Origin: Ginglymostoma cirratum
Lineage: Eukaryota
Length of the DNA stretch: 64,000 nucleotides
Direction of reading: 5' to 3'
Assembly (NCBI GenBank): GCA_024137785.1
Contig: JAHRHZ010000086.1
Location: 7,433,747 to 7,497,746, forward strand
In this document: positions 1,004 to 4,000 of the stretch, piece after piece
Position numbering within the stretch: the stretch's first letter is position 1
How the letters are laid out: each line of letters opens with the position of its first letter
Made by a program: the position numbers and the translations under genes
The notes under the pieces: generated by a model
What the model saw: only the letters and a program-made list of their open reading frames with translations
Database searches by the model: none
Told to the model about the DNA's origin: nothing

Positions 1004-4000
1004 GTTTGGAAACGGCTCAGTTATCTTCCAGCATTGACCCATTCACTGGGGCAATGACCATTAATTAATATTCACCATTATGTGACTTGCATTATTTTTG
1101 TGTGATGCAGCTTATTTACATAACGGTGTGGCCTGCTGATGACTTTGACTATTTCTGGGGAGTAGTCATTGTATTTGCGTCACTACCATCTGGTGAAATT
1201 TTGGTCAAGCTGCTTATAGTTTTTCAAGAGATAGCAAGAACTGCAGATGCTGGAGTCAGAGATAACACAGTGTGGAGCTGGAGGAACACAGCAGGCCAGG
1301 AAGCATCAGAGGAATAGGAAAGCTGACGTTTCGGGTCAGGAGTCTTCTTCAGAAATGAAGAAGGGCCCCGACTTGAAACGTCAGCTTTCCTATTCCTCTG
1401 ATGCTGCCTGACCTGGTGTGTTCCTCCAGCTCCACACTGTGTTGTCTATAGTTTTTCAAATTTATTTGCAGTTCGCTTGTTGAGACATTTGAAATTATGT
1501 TGGTTGGACCAGGCTAAATAGAAAACAGGTTGTTAATGTCATTTAAGAGATCTAATACATGATAAAAGATTAAACTGAAGGAAATTTTGAATAGAGAATT
1601 GGACAGCTCTTCTAAATAGAGAGTTGTGAGGCTGTGAAATGCATTTCTGAGATTAATTTTAAAGCAGGGCCCATGCCATATTTAAGATTAACAACAAAAA
1701 AGCTTGCATTTCTATAGTGCCTTTAACATAGTAAAACCTCCCAAGGCAATGTACAACAATGTTATCAAATATAAGTTAACATTAAGCCATTTAACAAGAT
1801 TATAATTTAGGTGACCAAAACCTTGGTCAAACAGGCAGCTTTTAAGGAGCATCTTAAAGAAGGAAAGCAGCATAGAGAGGCAGAGAGATTTAAGGGAGAA
1901 ATTCCAGGGTTTAGGGCCAAGTTAGCTGAAGACATGGCCACTTTCATTGGGATGATTAAATTTGGGGATGTGCAAGAGACCAAAGAGAGGTTGTTTGAGA
2001 GGGATGAGACCAAACAGGAATTTGAAAGCAAGGATATGTATTTTAAAATTCATACAATTGAGGCATTGCTGGTATAGGAGCCATTGTAGGTCAGCAAGCA
2101 CAGGGGTGACAGTCGAATGGAATTTGGTGCAAGTTAGATCGGTGATTGAAGGCAAAGGGGTTGGACAGATGATTGAGAGACTGCCCATGTGCACTAGAAA
2201 CACTAACTGCACTAGCTGGGCTGAATGGCTCATTTCTTTGTTGTAATGTTTATGTAATCGTATGTTATGCTCTGTCTCTGTGAAGACAGCCTGAAGTCTC
2301 AGCACCAGTGAAGAATGTCCTTTACTGCAATTACTTTATGTTTCAAGCTCTAACCTCTGCACTCTTTCTTCAAGCCAAGTGCTGCCATTTAACTGTGAAT
2401 TCTTTGCCTCATTTGCTTTAGGGCAAAGGAGGCACAAAGACACTGATGAACACCATTATGCAACTGAGGAAGATTTGCAACCACCCATATATGTTTCAGC
2501 ATATTGAGGTAAGCAGTTCTGCCAAATATTCCAGTGTCACGGGGCAATAGTTGGCACTTGGTACAATATTAATATTCAGAACGACATCTATAACCCCAAA
2601 AATACATTAATTGCTCTGTCAAAGCCCCACTAATACCCTCAGAATCTCTTTTAAGTATGTAATTCTCCTGATCTTAAGATCTAACAGACAGAGAGCTGCA
2701 GATCAGGAAGGATAAGGTAAAAAACTCATCAGTGTAATGTAGGGGGGACAATGAGTTGTGTTCCTGCCCATGATTACTTACCCAAGACCTGTACTAATAA
2801 ATATAAATGTATGGTTGTGCATGTGAGCATGCCCATGAGTGATTGTGCACCATGCATGTTTGTGCATCTGTCATTGCTGGAGATCTGTTGAGGGCAAAGT
2901 TGGGTTGAGTCCCAATTTTCTCCTGCCTTGAGGGTGCTCTCTCTTGCAGTGTTTGACTGTGCGAGCACTGACCTCCCTAACCGAAGCATCTATGCTTCAC
3001 CTGTAAAAACTATGTATCCGAGGAAAACATCACACCAAATCTCATCCTTCTCTTTGCCAAAAGTCTCTGTGTGCTTTTTTCCAGAAGATATCCTGGAATA
3101 GAAAACAGGAAGGGGAATCCAGCCTGCTTTCTTTTTACTTCCTGCCTAGAACAAACATGAGGCATGGGGGTTTGCAAAATGTAGACCAGCAAACTTTGCA
3201 ATGGTCTGCCACTTCAAATACTCCTCGTTGTTCAGGTTTACATGAATGTTTTGCAGCTTTGTGCCAGTAAATAGGTTAATGCTGAACTCACGTGGAGTGT
3301 GCAGCTGTGCTTAGCTGATGCTAGAGTGACTGTGTAATGGATAGCACGCAGAGTGGCATGGCATTCGTTCATGTAAACTTTGTCTGCTTTTTAAAGTGAG
3401 AGTGATTATAGAAAATCTTTACATTAAATTGATTGTGTAAAGGGTGTGCGCTGATTACTAAATCATTGAAGTAAAATCAGTATTCCTGCAGAGTTTGCAG
3501 TTCTAAACATTTACACCAGTTTCCAGCATACCACTGAATTGGAGGTGGCCTGAAGTCTCTTTGCATAGCTGCTGACTGGGCAGGAGATGGATAGTTAGTT
3601 CTGCTTTCTATCAGGTGACATAAGTGTATGGATCGGGGTGTGTGTGTGTGTGTGTGTGTGTGTGTGTGTGGTGGAAGACATGCTCTGCATTAATTAGGAC
3701 CCAGCAACTTCCTGAACAGATTTTAATTCACCAGATGTTCAGAATTCCCACCTGAAAATAAATTTCTGGGATCATATCCTGGTGGAAAGTAGCTTTTAAA
3801 AACATAATTGGATATATTTTTGAAGGAGAAATAAAAGGGTATCAGGAAAGAATAGGGGAGTGAAACTAACTGGATTGGTCTTCATAAAGAGCAACACAGA
3901 CTCAGTGGGTCAAATTGCCTTCTTCAGTGTGATTCCATGAAACTGTGATACTCTGGGAGTGACATCTGAAATGAGCTTGTGTAATTGATGATGAAAATCA

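Follow-up and report, generated by a model that had tools for sequence, protein, structure and literature searches.

A two-armed insertion in a SMARCA4 intron of Ginglymostoma cirratum as a probable head-to-head product of a Penelope-like retrotransposon

A 219-bp insertion in an intron of SMARCA4 of Ginglymostoma cirratum is very probably of Penelope-like element (PLE) origin. The favored reading, considered probable, is of a single, heavily 5′-truncated PLE insertion, during which two head-to-head copies of the hammerhead-bearing end of the element were probably made. The feature itself is real and is likely an ordinary PLE product in a known layout, carrying a modest mechanistic clue; it likely represents the short, decayed terminus of a Penelope-like retrotransposon that is very common. 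Taken alone, the locus is of little importance, being one of very many PLE ends in that layout; as a class, minimal two-arm insertions are clean footprints of an unsolved PLE integration step, the one that yields inverted pseudo-LTRs (pLTRs) and tails, and a genome-wide count of them could discriminate twin priming from snap-back. The stretch of DNA analyzed, referred to below as the window, comprises 64,000 nucleotides (GenBank assembly GCA_024137785.1, contig JAHRHZ010000086.1), and all positions are given in its numbering.

The insert occupies 1228-1446 (219 bp) and is bounded by exact 13-nt direct repeats at 1215-1227 and 1447-1459, as the original prediction had stated; strictly, the target-site duplication (TSD) is 12-13 bp, since base 1447 fits both the arm and the repeat. 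When the 62,722 gap-free 219-nt intervals of the window were examined for a 13-nt flanking repeat (within ±3 nt), only 7 had one, all of them offsets of this insert. The inverted arms, 1260-1351 and 1356-1447, are 92 nt long and 89% complementary, with 10 mismatches and a spacing of 4 nt, so that the arms of about 90 bp that had been described are indeed present; the insert as a whole is nevertheless not a symmetrical palindrome, as 32 nt (1228-1259) are confined to the left arm, and its two termini bear no inverted-repeat relation to each other. The placement in SMARCA4 also holds, as the exon at 896-1003 corresponds to residues 992-1027 of BRG1/SMARCA4 (E 1e-17) and is identical to them except for the first residue, which the tool took as a start; a SMARCA2 chain gave a slightly lower score than SMARCA4 for this exon. 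The host intron extends from 1004 to 2421, with the next exon starting at 2422, and among the 15 of 216 joints listed from public contigs there was no empty site. The features of the locus are the following:

1004-2421, plus strand: SMARCA4 intron (host), after exon 896-1003
1215-1227, plus strand: left copy of the target-site duplication, 13 bp, 85% A+T
1228-1259, minus strand: one-sided extension of 32 nt, the PLE "tail", not present in the right arm; in the RNA sense (minus strand) it is the element's 3′ end
1260-1357, minus strand: long arm, pseudo-LTR end, with 87% identity to the single-arm copy at 37509-37636; 1352-1357 is its continuation through the loop
1325-1352, minus strand: complete minimal-hammerhead core, with C3 at 1352 and the predicted cut after 1325
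1356-1357, no strand: putative inversion junction, a 2-nt overlap (TG) common to both arms, with no untemplated bases and a 4-nt loop at 1352-1355
1356-1446, plus strand: short inverted arm without tail, 5′-truncated at U4 of the core
1356-1382, plus strand: truncated hammerhead core, lacking C3 and the 5′ strand of helix I
1447-1459, plus strand: right copy of the target-site duplication, from repeat comparison

The assignment to PLEs, which had been proposed before, is upheld by the hammerhead core, described below, and by the combination of tail, head-to-head arrangement and TSD. Insertions of PLEs are 5′-truncated and are often accompanied by a truncated copy in inverse orientation, with a tail of 30-40 bp at one end (PMC8557442, PMC8969392), and rotifer PLE copies have a 31-bp tail, head-to-head junctions and 8-10-bp TSDs (PMC3846280). 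The traits of endonuclease-bearing PLEs that are present here are a one-sided 32-nt tail, a head-to-head 5′-truncated copy, fixed 3′ ends, and a TSD of variable length in AT-rich DNA. Compared with the complex insertions of such elements (Arkhipova 2013, PMC3846280; Craig 2021, PMC8557442), the insert is alike in having a head-to-head inverted copy that is shorter by the tail, a tail at one end (32 nt here, against 31 bp and 30-40 bp published), a junction overlap and a TSD; it differs in consisting of two pLTR ends only, with no ORF, and it differs from the rotifer elements in the length of its TSD (12-13 bp against 8-10 bp) and of its overlap (2 nt against 15 bp; PMC3846280). It also resembles the Poseidon element of Anolis carolinensis (PAc; Frangieh 2024, PMC11167929), in which the tail is bracketed by two 3′ ends with a hammerhead about 85-125 nt upstream of them, the target is AT-rich and the core is retained upstream of the cut site; in contrast to PAc, the insert has no start codon at stem II and shows no ORF. 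A DIRS-type element, which has inverted termini without a TSD (PMC8969392), was considered and set aside in view of the exact 13-bp TSD. Non-LTR retrozymes (PMC7229834; bioRxiv 10.64898/2026.07.22.740005) are likewise non-coding, PLE-related and of similar size, with a type I hammerhead, and are reported from the sole cartilaginous fish sampled (bioRxiv 10.64898/2026.07.22.740005), but they form head-to-tail arrays with ribozymes on the same strand, whereas the arms here stand head to head with cores on opposite strands, and this class was therefore rejected. PLEs are described as expanded in the introns of the whale shark (10.1101/443036). A literature search for this family, or for ORF-less pLTR palindromes in sharks, returned none, and Repbase or Dfam may already hold the family.

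Both hammerhead-core motifs that had been quoted are present, one in each arm. The minus-arm core (1352-1325) is complete, with the invariant C3-A9, G12-A14, A15.1-U16.1 and H17, and it has the extra base after A9, the G10.1-C11.1 pair and the palindromic 15.2-16.2 known from minimal hammerheads (min-HHRs) of PLEs. It thereby shares with the minimal type I hammerhead of metazoan PLEs (Cervera and De la Pena 2014, PMC4209133) the same core with the extra base between 9 and 10.1, as well as G10.1-C11.1, the palindromic 15.2-16.2 without loop 3, and the occurrence of pairs on opposite strands, such pairs having been noted 100-700 bp apart in 2014 (PMC4209133). Cartilaginous fish are not named in the results and discussion of that paper. 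The plus-arm core has a G-U at 10.1-11.1 and no C3. The loss of C3 in this sense core, suggested earlier, represents a truncation at the junction and not a point mutation, as the right arm begins at 1356, whereas the family sequence of the left arm reaches 1357.

The helices of this copy are weak, as had been supposed. In helix II the minus arm retains 3 of 5 pairs and the plus arm 4 of 5, two of the latter being G-U. In helix I of the minus arm a mismatch separates 2 pairs from 1 further pair, and in the plus arm the first three positions are all unpaired; by comparison, schistosome min-HHRs (PMC4209133) have a helix II of 7-8 bp (5 bp here) and a helix I of 4-5 bp (2+1 bp here). The weakness of helix II appears to be a private decay of this copy, because substitution of the family majority letters (1342 C 95%, 1343 C 92%, 1366 T 94% and 1373 C 91% of the depth in the public contig run X1) restores 5 of 5 pairs in both arms. 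Since helix I falls below 4-5 bp, the copy is not classed as a working min-HHR.

The predicted fold of the transcript points in the same direction. The insert is predicted to form a hairpin of -168.5 kcal/mol with a mid-arm pair probability of 0.99 in 700 nt of intron context, so that the earlier suggestion of a long hairpin in the pre-mRNA is borne out at the level of prediction. Its folding z values (-19.2 for the plus and -20.1 for the minus strand, with 0 of 200 shuffles as good) are unremarkable, since any long inverted repeat gives such values; the single arms fold no better than shuffles. In the same predicted context the pair probabilities of helices I and II are 0.000. The original prediction of back-to-back cores acting as a dimer finds no support here, as the hairpin buries the two cores, which belong to opposite strands and cannot pair in cis; both ribozyme motifs are predicted to be inactive in this copy. 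It has to be noted that the published metazoan min-HHRs show cleavage that is weak or dependent on the PLE protein (PMC4209133, PMC11167929). A scan of the window with Rfam gave zero families at the gathering score, and at E<=10 its 14 matches comprised 13 miRNA-precursor hairpins and 1 antisense RNA, with zero hammerheads.

A profile of the arm found 7 related loci in the window at E<=0.022; it was built from 4 of these 7, the scores of which are therefore by construction. Five are single-armed and two, including the SMARCA4-intron insert, are two-armed, both of the latter with a tail on one side only. The other six are:

5574-5676, 36225-36292 and 41337-41400: decayed single arms of related subfamilies, found with the arm profile
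29863-29989: single arm with tail and an exact 9-bp repeat, starting inside the core
37509-37636: single arm with tail, 87% identical to the long arm, with a decayed core and a 9-bp repeat with one mismatch
47063-47678: two-arm insertion of a sister subfamily, with 94% inverted arms around a 400-N gap, a left-only tail and a 9-bp repeat

The core of the sister-subfamily copy, at ~47575, has at least 3 helix I pairs and adjoins the 400-N gap. The tail is thus also found on the copies at 37509, 47063 and 29863, and the TSDs vary in length, being exact at 13, 9 and 9 bp and 9 bp with one mismatch for four loci, and absent at a fifth. Four 5′ ends could be located, at about -5, +1, -4, and 0 to +2 relative to C3 (a small sample, n = 4), and none of these four coincides with the predicted cut site, 28 nt downstream of C3. 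A match obtained with nhmmer at 7716-7742 was dropped as a family copy (E 1). Three side observations concern the surroundings of these loci: a 19-nt palindrome at ~29999-30017, just outside the 5′ end of the copy at 29863-29989, resembles the 5′ edge of the core; the decayed arm at 5574-5676 starts a few bases past a SMARCA4 5′ splice site; and an inverted pair at 49463-50082 (54 nt, 83%, 512 nt apart) is possibly a relic of a DNA transposon.

The ends of the family were then defined from public contigs, which were compared with positions 900-1700 at 80% likeness. In run X1, 69,590 contigs matched, nearly all on the insert; the counts of loose ends are lower bounds, as some ends went uncounted, and 18 of 872 rows are listed. 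Loose ends pile up at 1227/1228 (at least 1,393 and at least 1,131 contigs, together at least 2,524) and at 1258/1259 (at least 405 and at least 450, together at least 855), and the flanks beyond them are AT-rich with low agreement. These piles indicate two fixed 3′ ends of the family, 32 nt apart, the tail-less ends being about one-third as many as the tailed ones; some of the loose ends counted at 1259 in X13 and X15 represent a sequence variant that continues into the tail and not true ends. On the opposite side, 246 X1 contigs depart from the arm at 1357 and enter a common purine-rich sequence, from which it follows that the arm is the end of something longer. Depth ratios of the runs were not treated as copy numbers; a run guessed to be RNA had zero depth on the flanks of the insert, and in run X23 zero contigs matched.

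No RT or GIY-YIG ORF is present in the insert. The translated arm was compared with longer proteins (26 candidates, 0 at E<=0.01), and a search of the window with 67 PLE proteins yielded just one decayed piece, at 7842-7985, with no clear copy of the family adjoining it. This piece, on the minus strand in a SMARCA4 intron, is GIY-YIG-like and resembles the C-terminus of PLE proteins (E ~4e-4). The tie to PLE ORFs therefore rests on the shared core and architecture, as no RT or GIY-YIG ORF is linked to the family itself.

That shared core was followed in the DNA of other animals by means of a core-only DNA pattern, which found at least 121 metagenome loci, 11 genome loci and 1 viral locus, the last 12 being excluded from the counts of helices and architecture. 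As the pattern was built from the SMARCA4-intron core, the core and three helix II pairs of the metagenome loci are circular. A family-specific DNA pattern had 0 matches in metagenome and viral contigs, and the arm profile matched 0 of the 133 core-bearing loci, so that the metagenome loci belong to other families; they are animal DNA, judged by the best-named homologue of one ORF. Outside the search pattern, helix I positions 1-4 form 58, 59, 56 and 39 Watson-Crick pairs among 72 distinct contexts, a level reached by 0 of 2,000 shuffles and lost in a slid register. Covariation in helix I is 0.418 on 66 rows, as compared with 0.133 shuffled and at most 0.085 slid, and 0 of 500 shuffles reach it, the shuffle leaving the relatedness of the rows uncontrolled. 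For an ORF at one of these loci (L024) there are 67 longer homologues, of which most contain an RT domain and many a GIY-YIG domain; 34 of the 121 listed loci match these PLE proteins, and in 30 of the 121 the match lies on the strand of the core and ends 67-574 nt upstream of its C3, about one-third of the listed loci having flanks of only 300 nt. In a Pfam search of 5 ORFs, L058 gave a sub-threshold GIY-YIG, and the L024 ORF gave 0 families, though its homologues carry RT and GIY-YIG. Three contigs labelled as bacterial MAGs (L123, L126 and L127) carry the animal-type core, and L126 and L127 also match PLE ORFs, which, as far as the sequences go, suggests host DNA in bacterial bins.

The model R1, built from the metagenome rows, in turn had its best match of the window in the minus-arm core (24.2 bits, approximate E 4e-4), a result that is circular as regards the core, with 47571-47614 second and 37601-37640 fourth; the third and fifth matches, 3892-3934 and 42854-42903, have no GAAA box and were rejected. 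At E<=5 in the window, R1 did not list the plus-arm core, nor did it list the copies at 29990, 5574, 36225 and 41337.

The head-to-head architecture recurs in these other families as well. Among the listed loci with 120 nt on each side, 17 of 102 have a head-to-head copy of the core-bearing arm; in the 18 head-to-head loci the centre lies at most 17 nt from C3 in 8 and farther upstream (28-208 nt from the core) in 10, the search having required one intact core, so that centres downstream were not detectable. Seven of the 18 have TSDs of at least 10 bp, and in these the TSDs measure 11-15 bp and are all accompanied by a one-sided extension of 30-53 nt. These seven loci (L004, L014, L028, L045, L052, L093 and L113) are ORF-less head-to-head insertions of 226-484 bp. 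Two loci, L004 and L077, have their centres within 2 nt of C3, like the SMARCA4-intron insert.

In the proposed mechanism, the RT and GIY-YIG endonuclease of a Penelope-like retrotransposon would make a staggered 12-13-nt cut in AT-rich DNA, and each nick would prime reverse transcription, one at a distal and the other at a proximal internal start site, the two sites bracketing the tail. Both cDNAs would stop at the 5′ edge of the hammerhead and be joined through the 2-nt overlap. The template would likely be an uncleaved RNA, since both arms retain core sequence upstream of the cut site. The copy has since decayed and is probably a passenger; a transcript running across it is predicted to form a single long hairpin in which the ribozyme motif is buried. 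This scheme draws on the lizard Poseidon, which in vitro cuts AT-rich DNA on both strands and extends both (PMC11167929), and for which the tail corresponds to the stretch between two RT start sites and unprocessed RNA serves as the template (PMC11167929).

The alternative that survives best replaces the twin-priming step only, and is possible, if clearly the less probable of the two. In this snap-back model the 3′ end of the first cDNA would fold on itself (2-bp stem, 4-nt GAAA loop) and self-prime, the product being resolved 32 nt short. Precisely such a structure, a self-complementary overlap of 2 nt enclosing a 4-nt loop, forms the junction, self-priming has been proposed for palindromic PLE junctions (PMC3846280), and resolution by the endonuclease has been proposed for the tail (PMC8557442). 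A rare two-base variant that is common to both arms (1314-1315 and 1392-1393; 91, 97, 92 and 82% of the X1 depth differs) would also be accounted for, as it equally is by the favored reading, since it points to one template, gene conversion between the arms being the alternative. Against snap-back speaks that the tail ends are in vitro the two RT start sites, with both strands extended (PMC11167929), and that 10 of the 18 two-arm loci elsewhere are centred 28-208 nt upstream of the core, where a small loop is not evident. Twin priming and snap-back yield the same product.

Twin priming itself may be taken one step further. The tail stands on one side only in all 9 TSD-bounded two-arm copies examined (2 of 2 in the window and the 7 of 7 selected from other animals), which suggests that the two ends are coupled. 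A tentative extension, held to be rather unlikely as it stands, is that a dimeric protein makes two copies of one uncleaved RNA, each subunit beginning at a start site of its own, with both cDNAs stopping at the 5′ edge of the hammerhead; this would explain the one-sided tails, the private variants in both arms and the 5′ ends at -5 to +2 of C3. Were it true, the introns of this genome would be seeded with thousands of dsRNA hairpins, an analogue of inverted Alu pairs.

The original prediction had envisaged a dedicated non-autonomous family with a fixed two-arm architecture, in which the 219-nt palindrome would act as the master and be transcribed and retrotransposed, or else excised, in one piece, a process in which the hammerheads would have a part, and this is improbable. 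Two contigs of X1 (records 6 and 7) span the same centre as the insert, with ~81% identity and 1 and 0 gaps, and are the best evidence for a recurrent palindrome; the centres of L004 and L077 fall within 2 nt of C3, and non-autonomous PLE derivatives do exist (bioRxiv 10.64898/2026.07.22.740005). However, the family does not have the palindrome as its fixed form, as 5 of the 7 window loci are single-armed, and the tail-less ends in X1 amount to about one-third of the tailed ends instead of equaling them. The 246 contigs that run beyond 1357 and the joints of X1 contigs, which are scattered over many other positions in the 15 of 216 listed, argue in the same sense, as do the near-zero probabilities of the hammerhead helices in the predicted hairpin, the head-to-tail arrays of known retrozymes, and the published PLE pattern.

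Even less probable is a retention of the insertion through an effect on SMARCA4 expression, exerted by an intronic hairpin that undergoes editing or dicing. The predicted stability and mid-arm pairing given above would suit such a role, and junction-side contigs (records 8 and 9) suggest that the insert is present in both organism labels A and B; to one side of the junction these records cover fewer than 31 letters, so that formally they do not bridge it, the arms have diverged by 11% with no sign of compensation, and intronic copies are expected by chance given the abundance of the family. The literature searched for editing of PLE hairpins contained nothing specific, and if intronic copies are edited, they may constitute an Alu-like source of dsRNA in the host lineage. 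That the insert is a MITE of a cut-and-paste DNA transposon with a hammerhead likeness arisen by chance, for which its shortness, high copy number, long inverted repeats and TSD might speak, is largely refuted and scarcely credible, as the termini are not mutual inverted repeats, TSD lengths vary among the relatives (13, 9, 9), single-arm copies have their own TSD, and the same core stands behind RT and GIY-YIG ORFs in other animals.

Two further reading frames of the window, both on the plus strand, bear on its general content. The frame at 14158-15105 (315 codons), which matched no Pfam family at E<=0.01, is presumably a remnant of the C-terminal part of a LINE reverse transcriptase. The frame at 55163-55606 contains cysteine-rich repeats that we take to be LDL-receptor class A repeats, which would agree with the SMARCA4-LDLR order assumed for other vertebrates.
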